The notes under the pieces were generated by a model. The model searched no databases. It saw nothing but the letters and a program-made list of their open reading frames with translations, and was not told the DNA's origin. A stretch of DNA of 64,000 bases from an uncultured Candidatus Saccharibacteria bacterium (GTDB lineage Bacteria > Patescibacteriota > Minisyncoccia > Phycocordibacterales > SBAW01): positions 150,764 to 214,763 of the forward strand of contig CAZMIU010000001.1 in NCBI GenBank assembly GCA_964566795.1, read 5' to 3'. Positions 6,478-39,702 of the stretch are shown here, one piece after another. A program made the position numbers and the translations under genes. The first letter of the stretch is position 1, and each line of letters opens with the position of its first letter.

Positions 6478-6903
6478 TTAGCGTTTACTCCACTGCTTGC
6501 GCTTGCGGGCCTTAACGAAGCCGGCTTTGCGGCGCTCCTTGGCGCGAGGGTCGCGCTTGAGAAAGCCCTCTGCCTTAAGCGCGCCGCGCAGGTTGATATC
6601 ATAGTCGATAAGCGCGCGCGAGATAGCGTGGCGCACGGCTGTGGCCTGGCCTGCGATGCCGCCGCCTTTAACCACTACGGTTACAGTAAACGGAGTCGAG
6701 AGCGAGAGCTTAAGGAAGGGCTCGACAGCAGTCGTGCGGAGCGTCTCGGTGTGGAAGTAGTCCTCAGCAGGCTTGCCGTTGATGACAACGCTGGTGCGGG
6801 CCGAGGGTGCGAGGCGTGCACGGGCAATAGCCGTCTTGCGGCGCCCTACTGCCTCAAAGCCCTCTATGTTTGTTGCGGTTGCCATACTGGTAATGGTATT
6901 CAC
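6478..6903 (-). CDS. rpsI: 30S ribosomal protein S9
   Basis: C-terminal ...GFLKRDPRAKERRKAGFVKARKRKQWSKR is typical of uS9. Confidence 0.9.
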   Translation of the reverse strand: MNTITSMATATNIEGFEAVGRRKTAIARARLAPSARTSVVINGKPAEDYFHTETLRTTAVEPFLKLSLSTPFTVTVVVKGGGIAGQATAVRHAISRALIDYDINLRGALKAEGFLKRDPRAKERRKAGFVKARKRKQWSKR

Positions 6904-10529: not shown

Positions 10530-11777
10530 CTATTCAACCTCGGTTTCTATCTCAATCTTCTCCGGTTCTGCCGGGAAATTGGTCATCCAGAAGGGGCGCA
10601 CCGTGGCGGTGGCCGACTTAATAGCCGGAGCAAACGACTCTATTATGCTCTGGAACTGGCTCTTAGATTTGCCCAGGAGTGCCTCCTTAACTTTGTTAGG
10701 GTCAAACTGCCACACCAGCGTGGTCTGCCCTACTACCCGGATGGTGATCTGGTCTGGAGCATTTTTGGTGGTGCTCGCTAGCGACACCTCCAGACTGCCC
10801 TGATCTTTAAAGTCGACAGCCTCGCCCTCGTAGCCGTCTACAAGCTTCATGGCGAGCGCAGAGGCAAAGTCGCGGATATTAACGGCCGCGCCAAACGCGG
10901 TTGCCGACTGCGAGAGCGTTGCGGTCTTTTTGTCTTGGCTGGCGGCCTGCACTATCTCGCCATACACAATGTCGAGCGTGCCCGGTATGGCCATGGACGT
11001 TTCAGGAATGCTTTGAGCGAGCTGGCGCTGTGTGCCCTGATCAAGCTGGGCTTTAAGCTCTGCCTTGGCTGCCTCGAGGTCTGCCTGTGCTACTGCCGGC
11101 TCATCGCCCACAAAGCCGCCCGTAATGGCGCCATTGGACTTGGCGTTGAACTTCTCAAACCGGGGGTCGCCCTTAAAACCCGGGAGCGTAAATGTGATAG
11201 AGCCCGAGCGGTTGTAGTCGGCACCGGGAGACTCGGCATTAATAGCCGCCGTCACCGAGCCGCCCGCCGGCAGGTCTACAGATGATGCGAGGCGGTAAAT
11301 CTTGCCGTCTGTTGCCTGCAGGCGCGTGCCCGATATAAGGCGCTGCGATGCGGTGTACGTGCTTGTGATAGTAGCGGTACCGCGGGCCTGGCGGGATACG
11401 CGCTGCGTGCCGGTGGCAGGCACCGTGGTAGTGGCAGACTGTGTGGCCGAAAGCTTGGAGTACGCAAGGATGCCAACCGGCGCCGTGGTCTGGGCCACTA
11501 TAGTGGTAGAGGCAACCACCTCCTGCGTGCGTGGGTAGACCACAATACTTGCCCCCGCATTAAGCAGGGACGCCGCAGCCACCCCTCCTGTGCAGACAAT
11601 TATTACAACAAAGGCAAGCAGCAAAAAGCGGCCGATGCGGCGCTTTCGGCGCCTCTTTTGCTGAGGAGGTTCTGGCCTGTAATACTCCGGAATTTCCTGG
11701 CGTTGTATATGGTGGTGGCCGCTGGGTATCGGGATATTGCGGATAGACCTATCCCCGGGAGGAATCATGTCGCGCAT
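10530..11777 (-). CDS. Hypothetical single-pass membrane protein with large Thr/Ala-rich extracytoplasmic domain
   Basis: R/K-rich cytoplasmic N-terminus, one TM helix (FLLLAFVVIIVCTGGVAAA), then a ~330 aa soluble region. No recognisable family. Confidence 0.5.
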   Translation of the reverse strand: MRDMIPPGDRSIRNIPIPSGHHHIQRQEIPEYYRPEPPQQKRRRKRRIGRFLLLAFVVIIVCTGGVAAASLLNAGASIVVYPRTQEVVASTTIVAQTTAPVGILAYSKLSATQSATTTVPATGTQRVSRQARGTATITSTYTASQRLISGTRLQATDGKIYRLASSVDLPAGGSVTAAINAESPGADYNRSGSITFTLPGFKGDPRFEKFNAKSNGAITGGFVGDEPAVAQADLEAAKAELKAQLDQGTQRQLAQSIPETSMAIPGTLDIVYGEIVQAASQDKKTATLSQSATAFGAAVNIRDFASALAMKLVDGYEGEAVDFKDQGSLEVSLASTTKNAPDQITIRVVGQTTLVWQFDPNKVKEALLGKSKSQFQSIIESFAPAIKSATATVRPFWMTNFPAEPEKIEIETEVE

Positions 11778-15300: not shown

Positions 15301-17256
15301 ATGAAAAAATCTGCAAAAGTAAAGACCGCCTACTGGGGCTTTGACACTAAAGCAATGGACAAGCGCGTGCGGCCTCAGGACGATTTCTACACTCACGCCA
15401 ACGGCTCGTGGCTCAAGTCGGCCACAATCCCTCCCGAGGAGTCGCGCTGGGGCTCCTTTATAACGCTTAGAGTCGACACTGAACACCAGCTTAAGAAACT
15501 GGTCGAAACAACCAAGACTCAGCAGATCAAAGACATGTATGCCTCGGCTATGGACCTCAAAACCCGCAACACGCTGGGACTCAAGCCCATTGAAGGCCTG
15601 CGCAAAGAAATCGCCGCAATAAAAACGCATGCACAACTAGAGAATACGCTCGTTAAGCTCAGCCGCCTGGGGCTCGCGGGGTTTTGGGGCGAAATGATAG
15701 AGCAGGACCTCAAGGACACCACCCGCTACGCGCTGTTTTTGTGGCAGGGCGGGCTCAACATGCCCGACCGCGACTACTATCTGCTCGATAAGCCCGAGCA
15801 GGTGCGTGTGCGCCGTGCATATATGGCCCATATCGAGAAAATCGCCAAGCTGGGCGGCGCCGGCACCAAAGAGGCCGGACGCATCAGGGATGTGGTGATG
15901 AGACTGGAGACACGTTTTGCCAAAGCATCAATGAGCAAAGAGGACATGCGCGATCCGCATAAAATTTATAACAAGTACACGCTCGGGCAGCTGCAAAAGC
16001 TCTCGCCCTCCGTATCGTGGCAGAGATACCTCGCGGGCATCGGCGCCAAAAAGCTCCCCTACGTGCTGGTGGGCCAGCCCGCCTTCTTTAAAGAGATTTC
16101 AGTAATGCTCAAAGAGGTGCCGCTTGAGGAGTGGAAGACCTTTCTCGACTACGACCTCCTAAACTCCGCCGCAGGGATGCTCTCCGAGCCGTTTATAAAA
16201 GAAACATTTGCGTTTTACTCGCAGACTTTGGCCGGTGTCAAAAAGATGAAGCCGCTGTGGCGCCGCGCACTGGGTGCCACCGGCGCAACACTGGGCGAGC
16301 TATTGGGCCGCGTGTATGTCGACACCTACTTCCCTCCCGCATCTAAAAAAGCGATGGACGAGCTGGTGTCGGACCTCTTTGAGGTATACGAGGACCGCAT
16401 CAGAGCCTTGCCCTGGATGACGCCTGCCACCAAAAAGAAAGCTGTACAGAAACTGCGCGCCATGACACGCAAAATTGCCTATCCCAAGAAATGGAAGTCG
16501 TACGCTGGGCTGACAATCAAAAAGGGCGACTACGCAGGCAACCTGCTGCGTGCGGCCGAGTTTGAGCACAAGCGCGAGTTAAAGAAGCTCAGCAGGCCCA
16601 TAGACAGACACGAGTGGTTGATGACCCCGCAGACGGTCAACGCCTACTTCAATCCGCCCATGAACGAGATAGTCTTCCCCGCGGCCATACTGCAGTGGCC
16701 GTTTTTTGACGCTAAAGCGGATGCGGCGCTCAACTACGCGGGTATAGGCAGCGTTATCGGCCATGAGATGACCCACGGCTTTGACGACGAGGGCTCCAAG
16801 TTTGACCACAAGGGCAACCTCAGGAACTGGTGGAGCGCCAAAGACCGCAAAGACTTTGAGAAGCGCGCAGATTTGATAGTGCACCAGGCCAACGCGCACG
16901 AGGTGGAGCCCGGTGTACACATGAACGGCAAACTCACCCTGGGCGAGAACATCGCCGACCTGGGAGGCCTTGTCATTGCGTGGGACGCGTACCAGAAATA
17001 TTTGGCAAAACACGGACGCAAAGAGATCGGCGGACTCTCCCCCGAGCAGCGCTTCTTCCTGGCGTACGCGCAGATGGAGCGCGAGCTATCGAGGCCCGAG
17101 ATGAAAAAGCTCGCGGCGCTTACCGACCCGCACGCCGAGGCCTCCTTCCGCATCAACAACCCATTGCGCAACTTTGCCCCCTTCCACGACGCCTTTGGCA
17201 CCCGCAAAGGCGACAAGCTCTACACCGAACCTCAAAAAAGAGCCGAAATCTGGTGA
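15301..17256 (+). CDS. pepO: M13-family zinc metalloendopeptidase (PepO/neprilysin-like)
   Basis: HEMTHGFDD zinc-binding HExxH motif, downstream E ligand, NAYY motif; 651 aa. Confidence 0.9.
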   Translation: MKKSAKVKTAYWGFDTKAMDKRVRPQDDFYTHANGSWLKSATIPPEESRWGSFITLRVDTEHQLKKLVETTKTQQIKDMYASAMDLKTRNTLGLKPIEGLRKEIAAIKTHAQLENTLVKLSRLGLAGFWGEMIEQDLKDTTRYALFLWQGGLNMPDRDYYLLDKPEQVRVRRAYMAHIEKIAKLGGAGTKEAGRIRDVVMRLETRFAKASMSKEDMRDPHKIYNKYTLGQLQKLSPSVSWQRYLAGIGAKKLPYVLVGQPAFFKEISVMLKEVPLEEWKTFLDYDLLNSAAGMLSEPFIKETFAFYSQTLAGVKKMKPLWRRALGATGATLGELLGRVYVDTYFPPASKKAMDELVSDLFEVYEDRIRALPWMTPATKKKAVQKLRAMTRKIAYPKKWKSYAGLTIKKGDYAGNLLRAAEFEHKRELKKLSRPIDRHEWLMTPQTVNAYFNPPMNEIVFPAAILQWPFFDAKADAALNYAGIGSVIGHEMTHGFDDEGSKFDHKGNLRNWWSAKDRKDFEKRADLIVHQANAHEVEPGVHMNGKLTLGENIADLGGLVIAWDAYQKYLAKHGRKEIGGLSPEQRFFLAYAQMERELSRPEMKKLAALTDPHAEASFRINNPLRNFAPFHDAFGTRKGDKLYTEPQKRAEIW

Positions 17257-19134: not shown

Positions 19135-19596
19135 CTATTCTGCCTTGCCATAGCGGCGCCGCAGGCGGTTCTCGAGCTTGGAGAGTATCGTAAAGACAAG
19201 GAGGCCCAGCACTGTAGAGGCCAGCGCCACCGCATAGTAGCCAAACCCTGCCGCCATGCCCACGGCCGCAACAAGCCAGATGCCAGACGCAGTGGTTATC
19301 TCAGCCGCATGCTCGGTGCGCAGGGCAAGGCCGGAACCTATAAAGCCTATACCGATGACTATCGAGGCGGCAATCTGGAGCGGGTTAACGCCAGTAAATG
19401 AGGTCAGCTGGTAGCTGGCCACAAGGCCTGCGACGGTAAAAAGAGCCGATCCTAGCGAGACCAGTGCATACGTGCGCATGCCGGCATGCTTTCCTGCAAG
19501 CGAGCGCTCAAGGCCCATGCACGCACCAAGAATAACGGCAACAACCAGACGGGTAATGATCTCGACCTCTATACTCGACAGTGTAAGTCCTAGCAT
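19135..19596 (-). CDS. mgtC: MgtC/SapB family membrane protein
   Basis: LVVAVILGACMGLERSLAGKHAGMRTYALVSLGSALF is the MgtC family signature. Confidence 0.8.
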   Translation of the reverse strand: MLGLTLSSIEVEIITRLVVAVILGACMGLERSLAGKHAGMRTYALVSLGSALFTVAGLVASYQLTSFTGVNPLQIAASIVIGIGFIGSGLALRTEHAAEITTASGIWLVAAVGMAAGFGYYAVALASTVLGLLVFTILSKLENRLRRRYGKAE

Positions 19597-20280: not shown

Positions 20281-21129
20281 CTATTGTACCGTGCCCCTGC
20301 CGTCAGACAATACTCCCGCCTCCTCGAGCACAGAAGCGACCTTTTGCGATGACACGCCCACATCAGCAAGCACCCGGGGGTTGGCCGCTATCTCGCTGCA
20401 CAGGACAATGCGCTTCTCAAGCAATGCCAGCTTTTCCCTCCGACTAAGCGTTGTAAGCGCGGTTATGGGGTAGAGCCCCGCCGCCGCTATGCGGTCATGC
20501 AGGGTGTGGCCGTCGGGCTCATCCCAGCTTAAGAGGTCGAGCCCGGCACATGCAGCATAATGGGTCGCGTGCGTTGTAAACTTGGTGTTAGTTACAAGCA
20601 GCCCGAGCACCACTGTCTTGTCACCGCCCCTTTTTGCGGCATGTGCGGCGCGGATGTCATCCATGCGCGCTTTGACATATAAAGCGGTCTTAAGATCGGT
20701 TTTAAAGCCGGGGCTGTTATGGAACTTGGCCTCCACATATAAAAGCTCATTGCCCTTTTTGGCGACAACATCTACCTCATGCTCGACACACCCGCCCCGT
20801 ATTACCTTGTCTGTCGAGGCCTCCCATCCCTCTGCCCTCAGCAGCGCCGCAATGTATGTCTCAAACGGAAAGCCGGATGGTCCAAAGTCCCACACGGCGC
20901 GTTTGAGCGAATAGCGGGCAGCAATGCCGTGGCGGTGCGCGCGCAGCCTGGCAAAGGCACGACGGTAAATTTCCTGCGTGGTAATGCCGTCAAAAAGCTC
21001 GAGCTCCACCTCTCCCGCAATTTCCTGCGCAGTGGTACGGTCAGCACCCGCGCGGGCGAGCGACCCCAAGAGCTTGCGGTCATCAAAAGTCTCGCGCGTG
21101 CCGTCGGCCTTGGTTATAAGCAGAGCCAT
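20281..21129 (-). CDS. ATP-cone domain fused to Mrr/restriction-endonuclease-like (PD-(D/E)XK) domain
   Basis: N-terminal ITKADGTRETFDDRKL... is ATP-cone-like. The central VEHEVDVVAKKGNELLYVEAKF is an Mrr_cat-like nuclease core. Confidence 0.55.
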   Translation of the reverse strand: MALLITKADGTRETFDDRKLLGSLARAGADRTTAQEIAGEVELELFDGITTQEIYRRAFARLRAHRHGIAARYSLKRAVWDFGPSGFPFETYIAALLRAEGWEASTDKVIRGGCVEHEVDVVAKKGNELLYVEAKFHNSPGFKTDLKTALYVKARMDDIRAAHAAKRGGDKTVVLGLLVTNTKFTTHATHYAACAGLDLLSWDEPDGHTLHDRIAAAGLYPITALTTLSRREKLALLEKRIVLCSEIAANPRVLADVGVSSQKVASVLEEAGVLSDGRGTVQ

Positions 21130-21134: not shown

Positions 21135-22188
21135 TTAGTATACGATTGATTCTTTTATTACTCCCCCGCCAATACAGCGGCCATGTTTATAAAGCACCAG
21201 TGACTGGCCCGCGGGCACCCAATGCGGCTTGTGCAGCGTGACCGTGTTTGCCTCTGCATCAAGCTGTGCCTCGATAAGCTCCTGACGGTAGCGGTAGCGT
21301 GCCATGTATGTGCCGCTGTAAACCTCGCCTATCCAGTTTGTATCGGTTATCTCAACTTTTGTCAGCGTTGCGCCTTGAGGGAACTTGCTTGGCGATACGG
21401 TTATTGTGTTTGCCTCGATATCTTTGGCGATTACGTAGTTGGGCACAGCGTCGGGTGCCTGTGTAGCCAACTCAAAGCCGTGGCGCTGCCCCATGGTGTA
21501 GAGCGCAGCGCCCCGGTGCACTCCCACAACCTCGCCCGCCTCGTTTAACACGCTGCCCGGCATGGGAGTAAGCTCGCGCTCGAGCATATCTGTTATTGAT
21601 ATTGGTCCCAAAAAGCACAGGCCCTGGCTGTCTTTGCGCCCTGCATTAGGGAGACCGAACTTCTGCGCCAGCGTGCGGACTTGCGGCTTGGTGAGGTGTC
21701 CTATCGGGAACAGTACGTGCGCAAGTACATCCTGAGGCACCGCCCACAAAAAGTAGGTCTGGTCTTTGTCTATATCTTTGGACACATACATAAGGCCGTC
21801 TTTAACTTGCGCGTAATGGCCAGTGGCCACAAACTCGGCGCCTTGCGCGCGGGCCCAGTCATAAAAAAGCCCGAACTTAATCTCTTTGTTGCACAGCGTG
21901 TCGGGGTTGGGAGTATGGCCCTGTGCAAACTCCTTTATAGATGCATCAAACACCTTTTGCTGATACTCTCGCGAGAGGTCCACCTCCACAAACGGGATTT
22001 TAAGATGCGCTGCCACGCGCATGGCGTCTATGCGGTCTGCCCCGGCAGTGCACGGGTACCCCTCGACCGTTATTTTTATAAAAGCGCCCACCACCGCATA
22101 GCCCTGTTGTTGCAACAAAGCGGCCGAGGTGGCGGAGTCTACCCCGCCGGAGAGTCCCACGTATACTGTGCCTTTAGGAGTGGTTATC
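21135..22188 (-). CDS. mnmA: tRNA-specific 2-thiouridylase MnmA
   Basis: PP-loop VGLSGGVDSATSAALL and conserved catalytic Cys region. The ORF track extends to 22337, but the N-terminal 50 aa are low-complexity and overlap a terminator. Start set at GTG about 22186-22188, which is uncertain. Confidence 0.85.
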
Positions 22189-22211
22189 ACACGTCTGTTA
22201 TAGCGCGGATG

Positions 22212-22245
22212 CGCAAAAAGAAAAACCCCGGCGTAAGCCGGAGTC
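22212..22245 (-). terminator. Hairpin plus T-run downstream of mltG
   Basis: Minus strand: ccggcttacgccgg hairpin followed by ggtttttcttttt. Confidence 0.5.
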
Positions 22246-22254
22246 TTTTGAGGA

Positions 22255-23310
22255 TTAATCGAAGTAGGGGTCCAGGTACTTCTTTTTGTTGGCCAGGTGC
22301 TGCTCGTATGTGGTCGCATAGTGGAAGTTGCCGTCAAGGTCCGAGAGGAAAAATATGTAGTTGCTCTTAATCGGGTTAAGCGCTGCTGTTATAGAGTCGA
22401 GCCCGGGGTTATTTATGGGGCCGGGCGGCAGACCCTTGTACTTGTAGGTGTTGTACGGCGAGTCAATCTTTAGGTCCTCAAGCGTTACCTCAAAGGTGTT
22501 CTTGCTGATGATGTAGGGGAACACCGCGTCTACCTGCAGCGGCATACCAATAGATATGCGGTGCCACAAGACGCCTGCAATTTTTTGGCGGTCTGCGCTC
22601 TTGTTGGCCTCCTTCTCGAGTATCGAGGCCATGGTAAGAATCTCCTCTTCCGTATGGCCCGATGCGTCTATCTGCTTGGCGAGCTTCGTAAGTTTGGTAT
22701 GGAATGCGTTGGTAAATACAGAGAGCACGGCCTCGGTGGTATCCGCCGGCATAAAGAAGTACGTGTCAGGGAACAGGTACCCTTCCTTGCCTTCGGTTGC
22801 CGCGAGGAAGGCCTTCTGGTTAAAGTCTGGGATTTTGTCATACAGGATGCGCGCAATGTCCTTAACCGTGCTGCCCTCGGGGATCATGACCCTGACGGGC
22901 GTTGTCTCAAAGTCGCCGGAGACGACCCGCGCCGCCACCTGTATCATGTTTTGCTTGCGGCCAAAATAGTACACGCCGGACGGCACAGACCGGTCGTCGC
23001 CTACAATGCGCGCAATCTGCCTAAAGGTCCACCCGTTGCGCACAACCCCGCGCTCCTCAAGTATCTCCCCCACTTCCTTGAGCGACGAGCCCTTGGGGAT
23101 AGTAACGTATGAGCCCGACGGGAAGTACGACAAAGGCGCCAGTGTCAGCGAGTATGCTATCCAGCCGAGTACCAGTATGCCGCCAATGGTAACCACGGCA
23201 TGCTCAACGACCCTAAGGCCCGTGTACCAGCTCCACCCGCGGTGGCCCCAGTGTATAAATGTCGGGAAGTGGATATGGAACTTTTCTATATGGTGGGGCT
23301 TTAAAAGCAT
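22255..23310 (-). CDS. mltG: Endolytic murein transglycosylase MltG (YceG-like)
   Basis: N-terminal TM, YceG domain with conserved IPEG and catalytic E region. Confidence 0.8.
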   Translation of the reverse strand: MLLKPHHIEKFHIHFPTFIHWGHRGWSWYTGLRVVEHAVVTIGGILVLGWIAYSLTLAPLSYFPSGSYVTIPKGSSLKEVGEILEERGVVRNGWTFRQIARIVGDDRSVPSGVYYFGRKQNMIQVAARVVSGDFETTPVRVMIPEGSTVKDIARILYDKIPDFNQKAFLAATEGKEGYLFPDTYFFMPADTTEAVLSVFTNAFHTKLTKLAKQIDASGHTEEEILTMASILEKEANKSADRQKIAGVLWHRISIGMPLQVDAVFPYIISKNTFEVTLEDLKIDSPYNTYKYKGLPPGPINNPGLDSITAALNPIKSNYIFFLSDLDGNFHYATTYEQHLANKKKYLDPYFD

Positions 23311-26340: not shown

Positions 26341-29151
26341 TCAAGCAACCACAAGCGTCACTATTTTGCCCTTAACATAGAGAGCTTTTTGCTCCTGTTT
26401 GCCCTCAAGCCACTTGCCCGCTGCAGTGCGGGCCTGGGCCAAAATCGCCTCCTCCGTATCGCTCAGATTGACAGAAATAGTGGCACGCACCTTGCCGTTA
26501 ACCTGCACAGCAATGGTTGCAGTATCTGCCAGCAGCCTCGACTCATCGTACGCAGGCCACGAGGCACAAGAGACTCCATAGAACTCTGCAAGCTCCGAGG
26601 CCATGTGCGGCGCAAGCGGATGCAAAAGCTGTATAAATGTGGCATACGAGCCCTTTGGTACCCCCGCCTCATCAAGCTCCTTAAGCGCGATCATGAGCGC
26701 CGATATGGCGGTGTTAAACTTGAGAGCCTCGAGGTCCTCTGTCACCTTTTTGATCACAGGGTCCATGACAATGTCCAAGGCGTCTGTTGGCTCGAGCCTC
26801 CAGACTTTGTCTAAAAAGCGGCGGATGCCAAGAATATTTTTGGTGCTCCACGGCTTCATGGTCTCAATCGGGCCCATAAACATCTCATACATACGCAGTG
26901 TGTCTGCGCCGTACTCTTTAACCACATCATCTGGGTTAATAACGTTGCCCTTGGACTTGCTCATCTTGCTGCTATCCTCGGCCAAAATGATGCCCTGGTG
27001 CCTGAGCTTTTTAAACGGCTCGCCAAAGCTTATTACCCCATGCTTTTGGAGTGCTTTAGTAAAGAAGCGCGCGTACAAAAGGTGGAGCACCGTGTGCTCG
27101 GCGCCGCCCATGTAGAGGTCCACAGGCAGCCAGTTTTTGACCGCCTCTTTGCCCGCAAATTCCTTGTCGTTGCGCGGGTCGGCAAAGCGGTAGTAGTACC
27201 ACGAGGAACAGACAAACGTGTCCATGGTATCAATCTCCGGCCGCCAGCCTTTGCCAAAGATGCGCTCGGTGCGCTCCAAGAGCTCCTTGGACTGCCCCAA
27301 GGGCGAGGTCCCCGTGGGCTTAAACTCTACATCGGTGGGCAGCATCCAGGGCAAATGCTCCTCCGGCACCGGGTGTGCGGTACCCTCCGGGTCGTAGACC
27401 ACCGGTATAGGCGCGCCCCAGTAGCGCTGGCGCGAGATAAGCCAGTCGCGAAGGCGGTAGGTTTTGACCATCTTCCCTCCTACTGCCTCGGTAATCTTTT
27501 TCTTGGCCTCCTCGCTCGGCATGCCGCTAAACTCTCCTGAGTTTATTAGCACACCCGGTCCGGTATAAACATCCCTGCCGGTTTGGACTCTCTCCCATAG
27601 CATCCAAAATTCCGCATGCTGCATGTGCACAGACTCTATCTCTTTGGGCGAAAGCCACTCAACATCGTATTGATCACTCTCCTCTACTGTTACGGGCACT
27701 CGAGTGTCATCTACGAGCTCAAATAAAAAGTGCTCTCCGTGTGTTTGCCGGTTTACATCTTTATGCGCCGCGAAGAAAAAGGCTTCTGTCTCCAACAGGC
27801 TGCGGACAAGACGGATATTCGTGTATCCTGTTTCTTCTGCAATCTCGCGCTTGGCGGCCTCAAGCTTGTCCTCGCCTTCCTCTACCCCGCCCGTAACAAA
27901 CGTGCGCCACCCTGTCTTCTTCCACTTGAGCGTCAGATACTTGTCTGCTTTCGGGTCATAGACTATCGCCAGGATCATGTTGCGCCTGGTATTTTCTTTT
28001 CCCCCGCGCGGCGGGTTGGTCTCATCTACAAGACTCGGCATTACAACTCGCACTATCGGAATATTAAATTTTTGGGCAAACTCGTAGTCGCGCTCGTCGT
28101 GCGCGGGTACGGCCATAATGGCGCCGGTGCCGTACGTCGAGAGCACGTAGTCAGCTATGAAAACTGGAATCTCTTCACGGGTTGCAGGGTTAATGGCCTT
28201 GATGCCCTTAAGCTCGACGCCTGTCTTTTCGCGGCCCTCGGCAGAGCGGTCTATGTCTGACTTATCTTTGGCCTCTTTGGCGTATGCCTCCACTTCATCC
28301 CAGTTGGTGATAGAGGTTTTTAGCTCCGTGACCAAACCATGCTCGGGAGCTACCACCATGTAGGTTGCCCCATAGAGCGTGTCGGGGCGGGTGGTAAATA
28401 CGGTAATTTTTTTGTCGCTGTTTGATATATCAAACACTATTTCAGCCCCTTCACTGCGGCCTATCCAGTTGCGCTGGTTAATTTTGGTAGACTCGGGCCA
28501 GTCTATCTGGTCCAGGTCATCATGGAGCGCGTCGGCAAACTCGGTAATCTTAAAAAACCACTGCTCGAGGTCTTTTTGTATAACCTTGGTGCCGCAGCGA
28601 ACGCACACGCCCTTCTCCCCGCTCTCGGACACTGTCTGCTCGTTGGCGAGCACGGTCTGGTCTTTGGGGCACCAGTTGACCTTTGCAAGCCGCTTGTATG
28701 CGAGCCCGTTGTTGTACAAAAAGAGGAAGAACCACTGCGTCCACTTGTAGTACTCGGGGGTGTGCGCGCCTATCTCGCGATCCCAGTCGTAGGACAGCCC
28801 GAGGCTCTTTATCTGGCGGCGAAAGTTGCCGATGGCGCGGCCGGTGGTCTCCTGCGGTGGCACACCGGTCTTTATCGCGTAGTTCTCGGCGGGCAGGCCA
28901 AACGCGTCCCAGCCCATGGGGTGCATAACGCTTAAGCCCTGCATGCGCTTAAACCGGCTATAGATGTCGGTGGCTGTGTAGCCCTCCACGTGGCCCACAT
29001 GCAGGCCATCTCCTGAGGGATATGGAAACATGTCGAGCACGTAGAGCTTTTTTGAAGTATCTCCTGAGTCGGGTGCGGCAAATGCTTTGGTCTGGTCCCA
29101 ATGGTCCTGCCACTTTTTCTCAATCGAGGAGTGGTCGTATTTGCCTTTCAT
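26341..29151 (-). CDS. leuS: Leucyl-tRNA synthetase with an inserted Nudix hydrolase domain
   Basis: HIGH (HVGHVEGY), editing-domain TTRPDTLYGATY and KMSKS motifs. Residues about 385-500 contain the Nudix box GGVEEGEDKLEAAKREIAEETGY (GX5EX7REUXEEXGU). Confidence 0.95.
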   Translation of the reverse strand: MKGKYDHSSIEKKWQDHWDQTKAFAAPDSGDTSKKLYVLDMFPYPSGDGLHVGHVEGYTATDIYSRFKRMQGLSVMHPMGWDAFGLPAENYAIKTGVPPQETTGRAIGNFRRQIKSLGLSYDWDREIGAHTPEYYKWTQWFFLFLYNNGLAYKRLAKVNWCPKDQTVLANEQTVSESGEKGVCVRCGTKVIQKDLEQWFFKITEFADALHDDLDQIDWPESTKINQRNWIGRSEGAEIVFDISNSDKKITVFTTRPDTLYGATYMVVAPEHGLVTELKTSITNWDEVEAYAKEAKDKSDIDRSAEGREKTGVELKGIKAINPATREEIPVFIADYVLSTYGTGAIMAVPAHDERDYEFAQKFNIPIVRVVMPSLVDETNPPRGGKENTRRNMILAIVYDPKADKYLTLKWKKTGWRTFVTGGVEEGEDKLEAAKREIAEETGYTNIRLVRSLLETEAFFFAAHKDVNRQTHGEHFLFELVDDTRVPVTVEESDQYDVEWLSPKEIESVHMQHAEFWMLWERVQTGRDVYTGPGVLINSGEFSGMPSEEAKKKITEAVGGKMVKTYRLRDWLISRQRYWGAPIPVVYDPEGTAHPVPEEHLPWMLPTDVEFKPTGTSPLGQSKELLERTERIFGKGWRPEIDTMDTFVCSSWYYYRFADPRNDKEFAGKEAVKNWLPVDLYMGGAEHTVLHLLYARFFTKALQKHGVISFGEPFKKLRHQGIILAEDSSKMSKSKGNVINPDDVVKEYGADTLRMYEMFMGPIETMKPWSTKNILGIRRFLDKVWRLEPTDALDIVMDPVIKKVTEDLEALKFNTAISALMIALKELDEAGVPKGSYATFIQLLHPLAPHMASELAEFYGVSCASWPAYDESRLLADTATIAVQVNGKVRATISVNLSDTEEAILAQARTAAGKWLEGKQEQKALYVKGKIVTLVVA

Positions 29152-31228: not shown

Positions 31229-31831
31229 TTAGGAGTTGCGTAGGACTGTTTCTACAGAAATGAGCGTATTAGCATCTACACCAAACACACGCAAGAGAGT
31301 AAGGAGTGATTGTATTTGACCTTCAGTAAACGAGCCGGTCTTGAGCGTCTCTGCACCCAACACAAGGCCAGTGCGAGTGCGGTCGCTCCTGCCTCTGCCT
31401 CCGCCACCGCGGCTTCTATTTGAGCGGGGTTTATCCTCAGGAACTGGAGTCGGTGCTGTAACGGTTACAAAAGCAAGGTTTTTTTGAACAGTCTCGCCGC
31501 TTACAAATTCGCTCTGAGTAACAGGAGTTATGCCCTGCACCTCGCTTTCGCTTGGCTTCTGGACACTAAACGTTATCAAACCGTCGCCCTCTCCCACGAG
31601 CAGCTTTTGCTTAATAGGCTCTGTATAGCCATACACTCCCGCTTCCTGGGTAGTCACGCTGCCTGCCAATTCGGCGCCGTAGTATGCCCGTACAACCGTA
31701 CCTGTGGGTGCTGGAGCACCGTCTATGGTTACATTTCCCCAAAACGACATCGGGAACGCCGGCATAGCTGCCGATGCCATAGCTGGAGCCACAAACAGTA
31801 CAAAAGCAATAAGAAGTTTTTTCATAATCAT
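31229..31831 (-). CDS. Hypothetical secreted protein (signal peptide, Gly/Arg-rich linker)
   Basis: MIMKKLLIAFVLFVAPAMASAA signal peptide; no family. Confidence 0.45.
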   Translation of the reverse strand: MIMKKLLIAFVLFVAPAMASAAMPAFPMSFWGNVTIDGAPAPTGTVVRAYYGAELAGSVTTQEAGVYGYTEPIKQKLLVGEGDGLITFSVQKPSESEVQGITPVTQSEFVSGETVQKNLAFVTVTAPTPVPEDKPRSNRSRGGGGRGRSDRTRTGLVLGAETLKTGSFTEGQIQSLLTLLRVFGVDANTLISVETVLRNS

Positions 31832-31834
31832 GTA

Positions 31835-33016
31835 TTAGCGGATGAAGAGTCCCGTCACAGTATCGGTGCTCATGTCTGAGATGTTGGTAGTGTAGAGGTT
31901 TGCATGACTATCGCCGTAATCGACATCCCACTTAAGGCTTGTTATGCGCACACCAACCGCACCATTATCTACTCCGGTGGGAATAACTACTGTGAAAGTA
32001 AAATTCCTTGTTGTTCCAGGTTCTATCACGTAGCTCCTGTCTCCAGGTATCACCAAGTCATCATCACTAACACCGTCATCAGCGGTAATTATTGCAACAT
32101 ATGTTGAAGTGCCTGTGGTGGAGTCAGTGGTAGTTGCCCATGTCGTACCGTCGTTTATACCTGTTGGAGTTGCCACGGCCCCAACCGTGTCTCCATCAAG
32201 ATGGATGTCCATATCACCCAACGCTGTTACTTTAAATTTGATCTTGAACTCAACAGAATCAGCGTCGCCTGCGATAGCGCCGTTGGTGCGCACCTCAGAG
32301 CTGCTCACAAATTCTGTAGTAATGCCCGGCTCCTCTATGACAGGTACTAGTTCATCTTGGAAGCCGTTATAGTTTGCGCCAGCGTTCTTAATGTATATCG
32401 CATATCCTTTTGTCTCCCTAAAGTCGTGTAGGCTATTTACATCTGCAGGAACAACGACCTTCCACGGGTCGGTAACTGCAACACTATCCCTATTGGTAGG
32501 AAACAAACTGTCAGTAAAATCTACAACCAAGTCGTATGCACCGGTAAGCAGACCGAGTATCTGGCTCGGGTTGTTGGTATCAACCGCATTTGAGCCGACA
32601 GTTTTTGCATACTCAGCATTTGCAACACCAATAGAGTACCAACCCGTGGAGCCAAATGTGCGCTCAAACAATTTTTCATTTGGTGCCAAACCAGACTTGT
32701 AGTTAAAAGTTAGAGTTTTAGAGCTACTTGTTTTGTTATTTATAAAGTAGCCATATAGAGGCTGAAACTCAGTCTGACCAAGATCAGCCATGGTCACCCA
32801 CCCAGAAGGCGCAGAGGCGTCCAGAGCGTATATGTCGAAATTTTCAGAAGTCTCAGCTGCAGAAAAAGAGTGAGAGTCAAGCATCTTTGGGGTCGAAACA
32901 CTATTCCAACCAGGGGCAAGAGTAATATCCTCGCTATACAACACCGCTGCAGAAGAAGATACAGGAACACAAAGTATTAAAATTGCAAACAGACCCACCG
33001 AGTATGCGCGATTCAT
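31835..33016 (-). CDS. Hypothetical secreted Thr/Asp-rich protein (putative surface/adhesin-like)
   Basis: ORF 31835-33073. Start likely MNRAYSVGLFAILILCVPVSSSA (signal peptide) at 33016. Confidence 0.45.
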   Translation of the reverse strand: MNRAYSVGLFAILILCVPVSSSAAVLYSEDITLAPGWNSVSTPKMLDSHSFSAAETSENFDIYALDASAPSGWVTMADLGQTEFQPLYGYFINNKTSSSKTLTFNYKSGLAPNEKLFERTFGSTGWYSIGVANAEYAKTVGSNAVDTNNPSQILGLLTGAYDLVVDFTDSLFPTNRDSVAVTDPWKVVVPADVNSLHDFRETKGYAIYIKNAGANYNGFQDELVPVIEEPGITTEFVSSSEVRTNGAIAGDADSVEFKIKFKVTALGDMDIHLDGDTVGAVATPTGINDGTTWATTTDSTTGTSTYVAIITADDGVSDDDLVIPGDRSYVIEPGTTRNFTFTVVIPTGVDNGAVGVRITSLKWDVDYGDSHANLYTTNISDMSTDTVTGLFIR

Positions 33017-33062
33017 ATGCCGCAATCTAAACATAGATGCACAATAATGCAAAGAGGATACT

Positions 33063-33677
33063 CTACTCGCCATTTTTGCCTAACCAGGCGGCTTGGCGGC
33101 GCCACTCGTTCTTCTTCCACTCCGGGGCCTGGTCGGTGGGGCCAAAGCGCGACAGCTTTACCTTAAACCCGGCAAACCACAAAATCCCCTTCTTTATCTC
33201 GTTGGTATAGTCGCCAAACACAAGCCAGATAAGGTACGGGTGCGTGCCCGACAGCACCACAACGCGCGCACTCTTGCCCTTAAGACGCTTGTACCAGCCG
33301 GTGGCCGGTGTCCCCTGAGCGGTTTTCCTCATGTTAAATGCAAACCCGGGCAGCCACACGCGGTCAAACAACCCCTTAAGGAGGGCGGGCATGGTGCACC
33401 ACCAGTTGGGATATATCACTACAAAATGGTCGCACCAGCGCACGTTGTCTTGGAACTTAAGTAAGTCGGGCTCCAGCGCCTGTATCTCCTTGTAGCCTTT
33501 GTGCAGTATCGGGTCAAACTTCATCTCGCCGAGGTTCATCCGACGCACCTCGTGCCCAGAAGCCTTGGCCGCTGTCTCGTATAAAAGCGCCATCTCGCCC
33601 GAGAGCGTATGCGTGGCATCAGGGTGGCCAAGCAGTATAAATATCTTTTTGTGGCTGTGGTCCTTGAAAAACGACAT
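33063..33677 (-). CDS. Flavodoxin-like-fold NAD(P)H dehydrogenase (quinone), MdaB/KefF/YwrO-like
   Basis: KIFILLGHPDATHTLSGEMALLYE... is the Flavodoxin_2 N-terminal signature. Confidence 0.65.
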   Translation of the reverse strand: MSFFKDHSHKKIFILLGHPDATHTLSGEMALLYETAAKASGHEVRRMNLGEMKFDPILHKGYKEIQALEPDLLKFQDNVRWCDHFVVIYPNWWCTMPALLKGLFDRVWLPGFAFNMRKTAQGTPATGWYKRLKGKSARVVVLSGTHPYLIWLVFGDYTNEIKKGILWFAGFKVKLSRFGPTDQAPEWKKNEWRRQAAWLGKNGE

Positions 33678-33682: not shown

Positions 33683-34699
33683 TTACTCCTCTCCCATCTT
33701 AACAACCGGTCCGCGCTTTGATCCTCCTATGTCCTCCGGGCGCCTGGGCATAACGTGCAGTGCAGGCAGACCAGTCTCATCAAGCCCGGGCATGGGCACC
33801 GACGGCACTGACGACTCGGGCACCACCTCGACAATTGCCTGCGGCTTGTACGGTGGGGGTGGCGGCGCGGGTACGGGTTTGGGAGCGGGCGGTGGCACAG
33901 GTGCGGGCTTTGGTGCCGGTGCAGGTACTACCGCACGAGGATGAGACGCCTCGACCCTGCTCGGTGCAGGCAGGTCGAGCTCGGCAACCATGGGCAGCAG
34001 GGTGTGGTTTGGATGCACCTCAATCTTTGGGGTTGGAGCGGGCTTGGACGCCGCAGATGCGACTGCTGGTTTGGGTGCAGGAGGTACCCGGTGTTGTGCA
34101 ACAGGAGGCGGGACGGGCTTGGGCTCGGGTTGGAGCTTTGCTTGTTGTGCCGGTGCAGGTTTGGCCGCCACAACAGGCGGACGTTTAAGCGTGCTTTGCC
34201 CGCGCATAATCCACACAAAGACAGCCCACAAAACGCCAAACGTTACAATCCATCCGGCATAAAGCGTGAGTAAAAACGTCCAGCTTACGTCGGGAGCGAG
34301 CGTGTGCACTATAAACAGCGCATACCAGTTGGCACCTTCAAACCCCTCCACAGCATCCTGTGCTACGCCAGTAACACGCCACTCGGTAAAGTGGAGCACA
34401 GCAAGGAGGATTATAACCATCCACTTAAACAAAAACGCCGGCATCACAAGTACGCCAGCGGTGCCGCCCACAAGGTGCAGGGCCACTGCCGCAGCTCCTG
34501 AGACAACAATGACAAAGAGTGCAAACGCGCGCAGGTGGTGCGCCGCGCGCACATAGCCGCGCGTTGTCTCGTTGTGTTTTGCATGCAGCGACAGCAGATG
34601 ACCAATGAGCGTGAGCGTAACTGCACCCACACCCGCCACAATGCCTATCTCTTGTGCCAGAGATATTATCAGCGATACAAGTTCGCCTCCCAAGCTCAT
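33683..34699 (-). CDS. Hypothetical membrane protein with Pro-rich (PAPKP repeat) C-terminal region
   Basis: Four N-terminal TM helices, then PAPAPKPAPVPPPAPKPVPAPPPPPYKP low-complexity region. Confidence 0.45.
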   Translation of the reverse strand: MSLGGELVSLIISLAQEIGIVAGVGAVTLTLIGHLLSLHAKHNETTRGYVRAAHHLRAFALFVIVVSGAAAVALHLVGGTAGVLVMPAFLFKWMVIILLAVLHFTEWRVTGVAQDAVEGFEGANWYALFIVHTLAPDVSWTFLLTLYAGWIVTFGVLWAVFVWIMRGQSTLKRPPVVAAKPAPAQQAKLQPEPKPVPPPVAQHRVPPAPKPAVASAASKPAPTPKIEVHPNHTLLPMVAELDLPAPSRVEASHPRAVVPAPAPKPAPVPPPAPKPVPAPPPPPYKPQAIVEVVPESSVPSVPMPGLDETGLPALHVMPRRPEDIGGSKRGPVVKMGEE

Positions 34700-34799: not shown

Positions 34800-34966
34800 T
34801 GCCAGTGCAGGATATCACTCCGGCCTCCACCTCGTGGTCAGGCGTTCAAAATCGCCGTCGCGATTTTGCCGCACGACCCTGCCTCGCGGTTTTGCCAGTG
34901 CAAAACATCGCTCCGGCTTCCACAAAAGCAGAAAACCACCCGCAGGGGTGGCTTTTCTGTCTTTTG
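34800..34966 (-). repeat. Conserved tRNA-Ala 3'-flank, copy A (terminator hairpin plus ~90 nt shared with 49341-49450, with an internal ~35-nt tandem duplication)
   Basis: About 87 nt are identical to the sequence downstream of the tRNA-Ala(TGC) at 49268, in inverted orientation. It contains the hairpin gccacccctgcgggtgg followed by ttttctgcttttgtgg. Confidence 0.7.
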
Positions 34967-35039
34967 TGGACCCTACCGGGATCGAACCGGTCACCTCTTC
35001 CATGCCATGGAAGCGCTCTACCAAATGAGCTAAGGGCCC
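34967..35039 (-). tRNA. tRNA-Ala (anticodon GGC)
   Basis: Cloverleaf folded by hand: acceptor GGGCCCT/AGGGTCC with G3:U70, anticodon loop AUGGCAU, T-loop TTCGATC, 73 nt, no encoded CCA. Confidence 0.8.
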
Positions 35040-35113: not shown

Positions 35114-35413
35114 TTACTGCAGACGCACCCGGAAATGCGCTGCGTTTACCGTACGCAAGAGCCCAAGCCCTTTTGCAAACTGCTGTCTTTGCGGCACAGT
35201 CAGCTTGCCCGGCTTGAGTTGCGACTCAAGCGTATTGGCAACCTCAGCCGGTGACATATGCTCCGGGAGCATAAGATATGTCGGGCCAAAAGCTTTGGCG
35301 ACCAGCTCATAAAACTGGCACAATGCCTCGGTCTCACTCCCCCAGTCGTCGCGGGAGCCGTGCATACCGCAGATAAGACCCTGGGCCAGCTCCCCGGCGC
35401 TCACACTCTTCAT
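35114..35413 (-). CDS. Hypothetical protein (99 aa)
   Basis: ORF with balanced composition and a downstream terminator; no family. Confidence 0.35.
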   Translation of the reverse strand: MKSVSAGELAQGLICGMHGSRDDWGSETEALCQFYELVAKAFGPTYLMLPEHMSPAEVANTLESQLKPGKLTVPQRQQFAKGLGLLRTVNAAHFRVRLQ

Positions 35414-35438: not shown

Positions 35439-36182
35439 TTATAAACCCTGCCCTTTGGCCAAAAGTTGCGCCTGAGCCAGATCCTCCGGGGTATTGATAC
35501 CGTATCCCTCTTCCGGTGACAACCTCACGGTCACAACGGGCTTGTTGTCGGCCAGGGCAATCTCCACCAGGTCGGTTATATGATACTCACCTGTACCCTC
35601 ATTGCGCTTGATCCTCTGCACAGCCGCCTTGAGCCATGCCGCATCACCGCAAAACACATTGGGGTTTACCTCCCGTATCAGCTTCTCATCCTCGGAGGCG
35701 TTTTTATACTCGACAATGCGTGCAAGTGTGCCGTCTGCGTTGCGGACAATCCTGCCAAAGCGCTCAAACGCCGCGCACCAGCCCTCAAACGACTCTACCT
35801 CCACAATACCCATAACAAGAGGCTTGCCCGGCGTGGTATGAGCTTTTTCTAAATTGGCGATAGTCTCTGTGTGCAAAAAGGGGTGGTCGCCGTTGACCAC
35901 AACCACCGTTGCGTCACCTTCGAGTATATCCAGGCCCTGCCTGAGCGCGTCTGCCGTGCCCTCTATTGTTGCTACCTCCACATAGCGGTTGTCGCCCAGC
36001 GCCTGCATAACCTCCTGCGCCTTGTGCCCCACAATCACTATAGGTGTAAGACTCCCCGACTTGGCAAAGGAATGTATGATGCGCTGCGCTATGGGCACGC
36101 CTGCAACCTTGTGCAGGCACTTGGGGAGCTCTGAGAGCATGCGTGTGCCTTTACCCGCAGCAAGGATTATCGGCTGGACCAT
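35439..36182 (-). CDS. Sugar-phosphate nucleotidyltransferase (GlmU N-terminal-domain-like)
   Basis: ILAAGKGTRM nucleotide-binding loop and NTP_transferase fold; 247 aa, no acetyltransferase LbH domain. Confidence 0.7.
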   Translation of the reverse strand: MVQPIILAAGKGTRMLSELPKCLHKVAGVPIAQRIIHSFAKSGSLTPIVIVGHKAQEVMQALGDNRYVEVATIEGTADALRQGLDILEGDATVVVVNGDHPFLHTETIANLEKAHTTPGKPLVMGIVEVESFEGWCAAFERFGRIVRNADGTLARIVEYKNASEDEKLIREVNPNVFCGDAAWLKAAVQRIKRNEGTGEYHITDLVEIALADNKPVVTVRLSPEEGYGINTPEDLAQAQLLAKGQGL

Positions 36183-36193
36183 AGCAATTCAAA

Positions 36194-36430
36194 TTACAGG
36201 ATTACTGTTGCGCCCGCGGCGTTCACCTCGAGTACTCCTCCGTCTATGGCAAACAGCTTGGGCTCGTCCCCTGCCGCCAGATGCACGCGCAGGTCGCCCT
36301 TTTTGAGCGTAGTGATAAGCGGCTCGTGCTGCCCCAATACAGTCATCTCGCCCGCGGCCCCGGGAGCGTTGAGGCTGTACGCCTCGCCCTCAAAGAGAGT
36401 TTCGTTTACTTTGGCTATAACCAGATGCAT
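36194..36430 (-). CDS. atpC: F1 ATP synthase epsilon subunit, truncated (beta-sandwich only)
   Basis: 78 aa matching the epsilon N-terminal domain, at the end of the atp operon. C-terminal helices are absent. Confidence 0.7.
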   Translation of the reverse strand: MHLVIAKVNETLFEGEAYSLNAPGAAGEMTVLGQHEPLITTLKKGDLRVHLAAGDEPKLFAIDGGVLEVNAAGATVIL

Positions 36431-36519
36431 GTAGGGATACTAGCACAGCACCCAATGTAATAAAAGAAAAAACCCCGGGGTATGAAGCCCCGGGGCTGTT
36501 GTACTTCTCCTGCCGGAGG

Positions 36520-37341
36520 TCACACCAGCAAGATATCGTTGTGTACGCTCGCTTCGACGTGCGGGATGCCGACGAGGTCCACAGTAGTAACGTCGAACTC
36601 GAGCAGGCCGGGCTGGAAGGCATAGGGTTGGACCCCGGCCGTATTGGGATCCATGTCCATAATTGCCGTGTAGAAGGCCAGGTTCTGGTCGTTCTGCGTG
36701 ACAAACGCCGTGCCCGCGTCGTCCATGATAGGCCGGTTGCCTTGCGCGTCTTCCCAGACAATGTGGGAACCGTTGGGGTTGGCAACCGGGTCGTACTCGG
36801 CATGCAAGGTGTAGTCGAGCACCTCGCGACCGCTCGTGTCGGTAAACTGCAGGCGGATAAAGATATCGTGATCCTGCAGGTACGACTGGAGCGACTCGCC
36901 CTGGCCGTCGGTGTTGGTGCTGATAGACCAGCCAAAACTGGTTGCAGCACGCCCCGCATGTGCGACCGGCACATTGTGTGCCGGGTCGATTACTTGCGGG
37001 CCGTCGGGTGCCACGAACTTGAAGGTGTCTTGCGCGAAGGTCGTCGGCAAGATGCCGTCGCCCTGGCGGTAGTGCACTTCAGTGCCGATCTGCAGATGCT
37101 CCCGGGCGTTGTTCTCGATCTGCCAGCCGTTTGGATCGTTGCCGGCGCCGCGCCATATATTGCCCGTTGCCGGGTTGATCGCGGAGTCGTCGAGGGTCGC
37201 ATTCTGGAATGTCTGCGACCGCAGCGTCCATGGGGTCAGATCGAGGAGGAACGGCACGAACGCATCATCGATGTGCCCATCGTGGTTCCGGTCGAGAAGG
37301 CGCGAAAGGAATCGGGACAAGGGATGTCTCCTTGATTGCAC
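36520..37341 (-). CDS. Hypothetical Asp/Asn/Thr-rich protein with EF-hand-like DRNHDGHIDD motif, inserted between atpD and atpC
   Basis: Minus-strand ORF. A likely TTG start sits 6 nt after an AGGAGA SD. Strong GC3 bias (TTC/ATC/CCG/ACG/GCG) differs from neighbouring atp genes. The overlapping plus-strand ORF is R/V/L-rich antisense. Confidence 0.4.
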   Translation of the reverse strand: MQSRRHPLSRFLSRLLDRNHDGHIDDAFVPFLLDLTPWTLRSQTFQNATLDDSAINPATGNIWRGAGNDPNGWQIENNAREHLQIGTEVHYRQGDGILPTTFAQDTFKFVAPDGPQVIDPAHNVPVAHAGRAATSFGWSISTNTDGQGESLQSYLQDHDIFIRLQFTDTSGREVLDYTLHAEYDPVANPNGSHIVWEDAQGNRPIMDDAGTAFVTQNDQNLAFYTAIMDMDPNTAGVQPYAFQPGLLEFDVTTVDLVGIPHVEASVHNDILLV

Positions 37342-37378
37342 CAGCCCACCATGGGCCGGCTCCGCTAGCGAAAGTAAC

Positions 37379-37395
37379 CCATTTTTTAAAAATGG
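37379..37395. promoter_or_regulatory. AT-rich perfect palindrome CCATTTTT-T-AAAAATGG between atpD stop and the inserted ORF
   Basis: Seen directly in the sequence; candidate operator or processing hairpin. Confidence 0.3.
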
Positions 37396-37419
37396 TCAAT
37401 ACTGCCTATGAAGGGAGCA

Positions 37420-39702
<2,283 letters not shown>

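Follow-up and report, generated by a model that had tools for sequence, protein, structure and literature searches.

Flexible genomic islets, or allele-replacement loci, are sites at which different genes occupy the same position between conserved flanks. The locus described here lies in a stretch of 64,000 nucleotides (the window; assembly GCA_964566795.1, contig CAZMIU010000001.1, positions 150,764 to 214,763) from an uncultured Candidatus Saccharibacteria bacterium, and consists of an insertion with one credible open reading frame (ORF) between atpD and atpC, the genes of the beta and epsilon subunits of the F1Fo ATP synthase. Similar to the flexible islets, the site shows presence/absence and content polymorphism between the conserved atpD and atpC genes, and the boundaries of exchange lie at regulatory motifs without mobility genes. 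Unlike the flexible islets, it is situated within an otherwise invariant F1 gene cluster, and the exchanged unit would be a single gene with its promoter-to-terminator signals, donated by another locus of the same lineage. In a literature search, no earlier account of a gene at this junction was found for Patescibacteria. We lean towards an account in which an autonomous gene unit was swapped from the yceG/mnmA locus into a pre-existing slot, and in which its product is a cation-associated, non-enzymatic binding or adhesion module.

The gene between atpD and atpC

The insertion and the genes on both sides of it have the following arrangement.

37420-38790, minus strand: atpD, F1 beta subunit (Pfam E 2.7e-74), with the end ...VKAE-TAG
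36431-37419, minus strand: whole insertion, 989 nt, missing in the closest relatives and with the same boundaries in the related locus L006
37327-37332, minus strand: Shine-Dalgarno (SD) sequence AGGAGA, exactly 6 nt ahead of the TTG start
36520-37320, minus strand: the ORF, 266 codons and a stop, with an acidic, Lys-poor beta-sandwich product under strong purifying selection
36194-36430, minus strand: atpC, epsilon subunit of 78 aa with the N-terminal beta-sandwich domain only (Pfam E 7.6e-18)

The preliminary description of this locus, made from the sequence alone, had reported a gap of about 990 nt with a minus-strand ORF of 266 to 273 aa, and the measured length and coordinates agree with it. 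The longer variant (36520-37341, 273 aa) corresponds to an alternative GTG start 21 nt upstream of the TTG. The TTG start and its SD sequence are kept in the alignment of the orthologous loci, and the same start was picked by independent gene callers. A Tat-like 'SRR' motif that is present only with the GTG start was rejected, as it is not followed by a hydrophobic region and the orthologs do not share the GTG extension. The product is rich in Asp, Thr, Asn and Gln and nearly free of Lys (D 27, T 21, N 17, Q 16, K 1), as had been noticed before; Lys accounts for 0.4% of its residues, versus 5.9% on average in the window, and its pI is 4.4.

Comparison with the ortholog in L001 (91% amino acid identity) gave rates of nonsynonymous and synonymous substitution of dN 0.051 and dS 1.22, with a dN/dS of about 0.04. 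Most of the neighbouring gene products share only 51-80% identity with their L001 counterparts, and within the compared block the sigma factor alone is more constrained. The antisense ORF 36499-37335 behaves as non-coding DNA in the same comparison, with a proportion of synonymous differences below that of nonsynonymous ones (pS < pN). Coding constraint and orthologs, on which the preliminary description had made the existence of the gene depend, were thus both found. The ORF is beyond doubt a real and strongly conserved gene.

The junction into which the gene is inserted is tight in the closest relatives, as had been supposed. In the relatives that are closest by their atp genes (L025, L026 and L028-L030), atpD and atpC overlap (e.g. 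TAATG) or lie 1 nt apart, and AtpD has 4-7 extra C-terminal residues in comparison with the window. The identities of AtpG, AtpD and AtpC to the window proteins are 96%, 97.6% and 96% in L025, 92%, 97.8% and 91% in L028-L030, and 84%, 94% and 90% in L026. The comparison of homologous atp operons, which had been recommended, revealed the insert to be absent from these relatives and present with another gene in L006 (81%, 95.6% and 86% identity, respectively). The L006 insert has 1427 nt, lies at exactly the same point (...AAG GCC GAR TAG) and has the same boundaries. Its gene encodes four RTX HemolysinCabind repeats and, after them, a copy of the beta-sandwich domain with 34% identity to the product of the window ORF. 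The junction lacks an ORF in 10 of the 11 genome contigs of relatives where it is visible. In more distant Paceibacteria it ranges from tight to about 135 nt, often with long hairpins.

Origin of the insertion

Only four close homologs of the ORF product were detected among 5.8 billion proteins. Three of these are orthologs (P0001, P0002 and P0003, with 91%, 84% and 79% identity), and all three are encoded between yceG (mltG) and mnmA. The lineages with the ortholog at this place are L001, L003 and L017. The window retains the syntenic block around yceG and mnmA, from the leucyl-tRNA synthetase gene (LeuRS, 26341-29151) through the M13 peptidase gene (15301-17256), and contains the following features in the ortholog's place.

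22191-22254, minus strand: empty yceG/mnmA slot, 64 nt, the place of the ortholog in L001, L003 and L017
22226-22243, minus strand: remnant terminator hairpin and T-tract in the empty slot
22197-22202, minus strand: -10-like TATAAC, 6 nt ahead of the probable mnmA start GTG 22188-22190

The automatic, mechanical calls of mnmA (21135-22337 in the window, 6822-7937 in L001) run too far upstream, through the terminator; the likely starts, which both follow a TATAAC box by 6 nt, are GTG 22188-22190 in the window and an ATG near 6879 in L001.

A blastn search mapped L001 5960-6854 onto window positions 37367-36463 with 81% DNA identity. On this comparative evidence, the ORF appears to be derived from the lineage's own yceG/mnmA locus. 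Three-way alignments placed breakpoints at about 37365 and about 36470 and divided the insertion into segments of different affinity.

37419 to ~37365: -35 box TTGACC, AT-rich palindrome spacer and -10-like TACTTT; matches L006 (~85%)
37362-37419, minus strand: slot left flank, ~85% identity with L006 in the alignments
~37365 to ~36470 (swapped segment 36470-37365, minus strand): leader hairpin, SD sequence, coding sequence and terminator stem; matches L001, L003 and L017
T-tract to the atpC ATG: with TGcTAGTAT 6 nt before the ATG; matches L006
36431-36460, minus strand: slot right flank, common to L006, without an SD sequence

The terminator stem is like that of the L001 terminator, and from the T-tract on the sequence is like that of L006. 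The swapped segment is unlike the content of the L006 slot. Both junctions of the swap fall on short shared motifs (GGAGC / GCGAGCC; GGGGTTTTCTTTT). At the level of the aligned loci, these comparisons show a mosaic origin of the insertion and its presence/absence pattern among the relatives.

Because the outer flanks match L006 and the content matches the yceG/mnmA gene, the slot with its regulatory flanks is likely to be older than the gene that it holds at present. We propose that the insertion of the slot broke a translationally coupled atpD/atpC junction before the present gene arrived. The slot content from the leader hairpin to the terminator stem would then have been replaced by the gene of the sister lineages' yceG/mnmA site. 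The swap would have occurred by recombination at the short shared motifs and would have emptied the yceG/mnmA site in this genome. Since the site that is occupied in the sister lineages is empty here, a recombinational swap is favored over the acquisition of a foreign gene. The insertion does not have the features of a mobile element (insertion sequence, miniature inverted-repeat transposable element (MITE) or integron cassette): the search for terminal and direct repeats around the cassette returned only short pairs at chance level, and neither a target duplication nor mobility genes were found. A sliding comparison of the identity to L006 versus L025/L028 showed no local shift, and no recombination tract was found in atpD or atpC.

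A weak direct repeat, TTTTATAnAnTGG, is present at about 37380-37395 in the promoter spacer and at about 36447-36462 before the -10 box of atpC. The same weak repeat occurs in L006 at 4609-4621 and 5966-5978 (85%), and it is either a remnant of the origin of the insertion or due to chance.

Two other explanations of how the gene came to lie in this place were considered. A chimeric contig of a metagenome-assembled genome could have put the ORF between atpD and atpC, and the position of the gene elsewhere in the relatives, together with the emptiness of that locus in the window, is what such an artefact would produce. Four independent assemblies are, however, identical across both junctions: the order atpG-atpD-ORF-atpC-NTP_transferase (nucleotidyltransferase) is present with 100% DNA identity in assemblies from the unrelated runs DRR198497, SRR13076570, SRR14271372 and DRR685536. 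The same insertion point is also seen independently in L006, and the probability of an assembly artefact is regarded as negligible. The preliminary description had called the ORF foreign-looking, because its third-position usage seemed to differ from that of the flanking atp genes. This difference is significant for Phe (TTC:TTT 10:4 in the ORF versus 197:593 in the pooled ORFs of the window; Fisher 4e-4) and for Ile (ATC:ATA 12:1 versus 358:378; p 0.0015), and is weak for Pro, Thr and Ala. The proposed comparison of composition was divided in its outcome. The GC content at third codon positions (GC3) of the ORF, 0.777, is the second highest in the window (rank 54 of 55 ORFs), but its codon adaptation index (CAI) is ordinary (rank 19/55), and so is its chi-square codon distance.

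A recent horizontal gene transfer from outside the lineage, with landing in the atp operon, would explain the high GC3 and the deviating choice of Phe and Ile codons. It would also fit the SD-led TTG start, which is atypical of this mostly SD-less genome, and the fold relatives among phage proteins that are described below. The divergence of the gene argues otherwise. The dS to the L001 ortholog, 1.22, equals the 1.1-1.4 of the flanking orthologs, and the values for the L001 and L003 orthologs, 1.0-1.2, match those of the flanking vertically inherited genes, without any lowering of dS. The orthologs have this codon bias in their own genomes as well: GC3 is 0.865 in L001 and 0.857 in L003, each the top value among its own neighbours, and the fraction of C-ending pyrimidine codons is 0.88 and 0.80, respectively. 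The typical CAI, the lack of a sequence match in phage genomes, PHROGs and PADLOC, and the failure to find a transposase, terminal inverted repeats or a target duplication point in the same direction. Because dS matches that of the flanking orthologs and the C-ending bias is shared by the orthologs, the gene is probably not foreign, and a recent transfer is considered very unlikely. The high GC3 and C-ending bias would rather be an old trait of the gene than a sign of recent import, and it may be linked to expression.

The window segment 35004-40320 corresponds to L019-L022, the same strain with 100% DNA identity over up to 5.3 kb in the four unrelated public runs, which suggests either a clone of very wide distribution or a common organism of water or reagents. 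The compositional outliers of the window are the ORFs 31229-33073 and 5784-6602, with a GC3 of 0.43-0.51 versus a mean of 0.67 and the largest codon-usage distances; the 412-aa product of 31835-33073 looks like a surface protein with a signal peptide and an immunoglobulin (Ig)-like fold. In the relatives, ORF-less atpD-atpC spacers of 100-135 nt fold into long hairpins with z -2.0 to -5.2 (L005 2760-2874; L007 5888-6000; L012 5903-6000; L015 3720-3822; L016 5867-6000). The L015 and L016 spacers are collinear, and a core of 29 nt in L012 is 100% identical to the reverse complement of L016. This element, which is absent from the window, is thus present in both orientations and may be either a MITE-like insertion or an invertible segment. 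On the other side of atpC, a nucleotidyltransferase gene (35439-36182) and a 99-aa ORF (35114-35413) lie between window atpC and tRNA-Ala(GGC) (34966-35039). The tRNA-Ala gene follows atpC at about 40 nt or less in L005 and L006 and lies about 440 nt downstream in L007; the transferase is found in L027-L030. The interval between atpC and tRNA-Ala therefore appears to be a second variable spot that adjoins the slot.

Regulatory signals of the insertion

The signals predicted within the insertion are listed in the order of transcription.

37394-37399, minus strand: -35 box TTGACC inside the slot left flank, putative promoter element
37379-37395: palindrome CCATTTTT-T-AAAAATGG inside the AT-rich promoter spacer
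37371-37376, minus strand: -10-like TACTTT after a 17-nt AT-rich spacer, putative promoter element
37340-37360, minus strand: 5'-leader hairpin of 9 bp, also in L001 and L003 with sequence changes
36461-36497, minus strand: intrinsic terminator, stem 36471-36497 plus T-tract, between the ORF stop and atpC
36437-36445, minus strand: extended -10-like TGcTAGTAT, 6 nt ahead of the atpC ATG, candidate promoter element

The sequence TATTGACCA is invariant in 4/4 aligned loci. The palindrome is located where it had been described before. Its fold is weak (-4.9 kcal/mol, z -1.3) and its symmetry is broken in L006; for these reasons it was rejected as an operator or RNA structure, and it appears to be merely the AT-rich spacer of the ORF promoter. 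The terminator stem consists of 10 pairs, 8/10 of them GC, and is followed by TTTTTTCTTTT; its fold reaches -26.5 kcal/mol with z -3.86. It has the features of an intrinsic terminator, which the preliminary description had not mentioned, and is conserved in L001 and L003. An Rfam search of 36100-37700 returned sub-threshold matches only, over the terminator.

In most genes of the window, the start codon is preceded at a distance of 6-9 nt by a -10-like (TATAAT-like) box, and an SD sequence is lacking (examples are 10530-11777, 19135-19596, 20281-21129, 33683-34699 and 36194-36430), which suggests that leaderless mRNAs are widespread in this Patescibacteria genome. The ORF, with a leader, a conserved hairpin and a strong SD sequence, belongs to the small group of SD-led genes. 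The last of the examples is atpC itself. Because its upstream sequence fits the -10-box architecture of the window and it has no SD sequence, atpC may be expressed as a putative leaderless mRNA from a promoter supplied by the slot. In the proposed scheme, the atpB...D transcript would either stop at the insertion or continue into the ORF, transcription would end at the terminator 36471-36497, and atpC would be restarted as a leaderless mRNA. The co-transcription of the ORF with the ATP synthase genes, which the preliminary description had suggested, is doubtful, since the ORF is equipped with a conserved -35 box, a leader hairpin, an SD sequence and a terminator, and a separate -10 box precedes atpC. 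Judged from these signals, the claim of co-transcription is probably wrong.

The protein family and its likely function

Two parts of the ORF product are considered below.

36523-37218, minus strand: core domain, residues ~35-266, with a predicted local distance difference test (pLDDT) score >85 in the model
37264-37293, minus strand: codons of DRNHDGHIDD, residues 10-19, kept in 4 orthologs and absent from distant members

The homology and structure searches that had been recommended were productive only in part. Scans of the ORF product and the family members against Pfam, NCBIfam, PHROGs and PADLOC assigned no family, a sequence profile search of PDB gave no match, and neither did tblastn against phage genomes. 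A profile search for related proteins, on the other hand, found 40 relatives with E values down to 1e-162, and an exhaustive search found 200 representatives (50% clustering, E<=1e-3). These belong to an unnamed beta-sandwich family of about 230 aa, whose profile the ORF product matches over the whole core and whose conserved motifs (HYRQG, VPxGxQxxDPxHxV, RAA and DDxGT..TQN) it contains. The AlphaFold2 model is a beta-sandwich with pLDDT 87.9 and a predicted template modeling score of 0.86, in which the first 35 residues are poorly defined. Foldseek found nothing in PDB at E<=1e-3. The only significant whole-domain fold matches are phage proteins in BFVD (A0A2C9CZC4, A0A7H0XAE7, H9NBN6 and A0A482MFR0; E 5e-9 to 1e-7, TM 0.52-0.58, about 250 aligned columns). 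One of them, A0A2C9CZC4 from the Yersinia phage fHe-Yen9-04, is annotated as 'possible surface protein ... cell adhesion domain'. These proteins are like the ORF product in the fold of the whole domain, yet their sequence identity to it is only 8-16% and no sequence match was seen in phage genomes or PHROGs. The AGS-C immunoglobulin-like domain of the Pycsar protein EcPycC (PDB 9ard) covers less than half of the ORF product with 5% identity and a Foldseek E of 0.02, which is a generic Ig-like resemblance only.

Among the longer family members, 17 were scanned (16 database proteins and the L006 gene), and 15 of them carry HemolysinCabind, Cadherin_5, Big_9, He_PIG, DUF4214 or RsaA_NTD. In these proteins the domain is located C-terminal to cadherin-like, Big_9, He_PIG, DUF4214 or S-layer-type modules. 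It is usually also C-terminal to the RTX repeats; in P0128 and P0091 the repeats come after the domain. Many members have segments rich in D, H and N just ahead of the core; among these are HDG[HK] motifs similar to the NHDGH of the ORF. A crude heuristic detected signal-peptide-like N-termini in 25 of the 75 stand-alone members. No common neighbours were found in the genomic context of the distant members P0017 and P0030. The family is an undescribed beta-sandwich family that seems to be mostly extracellular. The ORF product shares the domain with the RTX and cadherin-like surface proteins (HemolysinCabind, Cadherin_5, Big_9, He_PIG), in which it forms the C-terminal module, and it resembles their modules in being acidic, in its beta-sandwich fold and in its tie to Ca-binding repeats. 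It differs from these proteins in that it stands alone, without RTX repeats, a signal peptide or a Pfam/NCBIfam model. Nonapeptide RTX repeats of the form GGxGxDxUx are absent from it, whereas the paralog in the L006 slot has four.

In a canonical EF-hand, the last of the 12 loop residues (position 12) is an acidic bidentate ligand (Glu/Asp). The preliminary description had called DRNHDGHIDD EF-hand-like, and the pattern D-x-N-x-D-G-x-I-D of EF-hand and dockerin DxDxDG loops is indeed present at positions 1, 3, 5, 6, 8 and 9. It is the sole match to D-x-[ND]-x-D-G-x-[IVL]-D among the window ORFs of at least 100 codons. In the model, short predicted helices (H2-8 and H19-24, pLDDT 53-64) flank the loop, and the motif is conserved among the orthologs. 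Unlike the EF-hand, the loop has Phe (window, P0002 and P0003) or Ala (P0001) at position 12, it occurs as a single copy and not as a pair, and it is missing in the distant family members. It is not matched by a PROSITE-style regular expression of the EF-hand pattern (PS00018). The matches of the N-terminal 45 aa to EF-hand_5 (13.7 bits, cut-off 25.9, E 0.044) and EF-hand_1 (12 bits, cut-off 25.4) are sub-threshold, and the full-length product gave no Pfam EF-hand match. The pattern therefore stands, but the loop is not a canonical EF-hand. Since D1, N3, D5, G6, I8 and D9 are invariant in 4/4 orthologs, the x positions vary and the motif is unique in the window, the loop is under selection. 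The L006 slot paralog has its RTX repeats at the N-terminal place that is equivalent to the loop. Because of these repeats and the D/H-rich N-terminal segments in many members, a divalent-cation (calcium or metal) site in the ORF product is plausible, and the loop may stand in for the RTX repeats of the paralog. In this respect the earlier suggestion of calcium binding retains its support from the invariant ligands and the RTX repeats in L006, and loses that from the canonical EF-hand. The periplasmic location that had been suggested as well is not supported and is probably wrong: neither the crude heuristic nor the alignment revealed an uncharged hydrophobic stretch in the first 45 residues, as would be expected of a Sec substrate.

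By analogy with the other members of the family, the ORF product is most likely a non-enzymatic, divalent-cation-associated binding or adhesion module. A cytoplasmic enzyme or sensor that has a beta-sandwich fold and depends on metal or Ca could also be conceived. A signal peptide is missing in the window protein and its close orthologs and, by the crude heuristic, in two thirds of the stand-alone members, and the invariant R, Q, H, R and D positions and the D/H/N-rich segments ahead of the core would suit such a function. We nevertheless think it rather unlikely, in view of the repeated occurrence of the domain in fusions with RTX, cadherin-like, Big_9, He_PIG and S-layer-type domains, the Sec signals in a third of the stand-alone members, and fold matches that are Ig-like or adhesion-like and include no enzymes at significant scores. 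The place of the gene raises the further idea of a lineage-specific accessory or regulatory F1Fo subunit, which might, for example, compensate for the missing C-terminal inhibitory helices of epsilon. In two lineages, those of the window and of L006, the slot in the atp cluster is filled by different members of the family, epsilon lacks its C-terminal domain here, and the gene is constrained like core genes. Its orthologs with 79-91% identity, however, lie between yceG and mnmA, far from the atp genes, and the closest relatives have the same 78-aa epsilon without the insert. The gene has its own promoter and terminator, and the distant members are found in unrelated contexts, with signal peptides or RTX/cadherin arrays. 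In the Pfam and NCBIfam scans, the product matched none of the atp subunits. Neither a conserved linkage to the atp genes nor homology to a subunit or assembly factor was thus found, and it is extremely unlikely that the ORF product is a part of the ATP synthase.

Several observations weigh against the account of a swapped binding module. By their atp genes, L025 and L028, which have no insert, are closer to the window than L006, which has one; either a lateral exchange of the slot by recombination in the conserved atp flanks or its precise loss on several occasions has therefore to be assumed. The dS values are near saturation and the contigs of the relatives are fragmentary, which limits the reading of the direction and number of recombination events. 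The promoter scan at standard stringency called neither the ORF promoter nor the atpC promoter. The window protein and its close orthologs have neither a signal peptide nor a transmembrane segment; a surface location would require some other export route, and a cytoplasmic location is possible. The loop falls short of the canonical EF-hand definition and sits in a low-confidence part of the model. The invariant polar residues R85, Q109, H115, R124 and D201 could equally mark a catalytic or metal site.

A more far-reaching idea is that the atpD/atpC site is a dedicated slot that swaps members of a surface family via shared promoter and terminator motifs, independently of a recombinase. We regard this as improbable. 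If true, it would amount to cassette switching for surface variation in an episymbiotic lineage of Patescibacteria, with an RTX-type protein in L006 and an EF-loop-type protein here, and the atp junction would have been targeted repeatedly. Other relatives hold hairpin elements there in both orientations.

The current understanding of the ATP synthase is unchanged by these results. What is new is an uncharacterised domain family and the proposed swap of a promoter-to-terminator cassette inside the F1 gene cluster. The locus suggests that a streamlined genome can split a translationally coupled operon junction and repair the expression by a leaderless promoter, and that a single promoter-to-terminator unit can change its locus without mobility genes. 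The function of the ORF is deduced from its relatives, which form an undescribed and widely scattered domain family of about 200 clusters at 50% identity with links to RTX/cadherin proteins and adhesion-like proteins of phages. One member of this family ranks with the best-conserved proteins of a Patescibacteria lineage.

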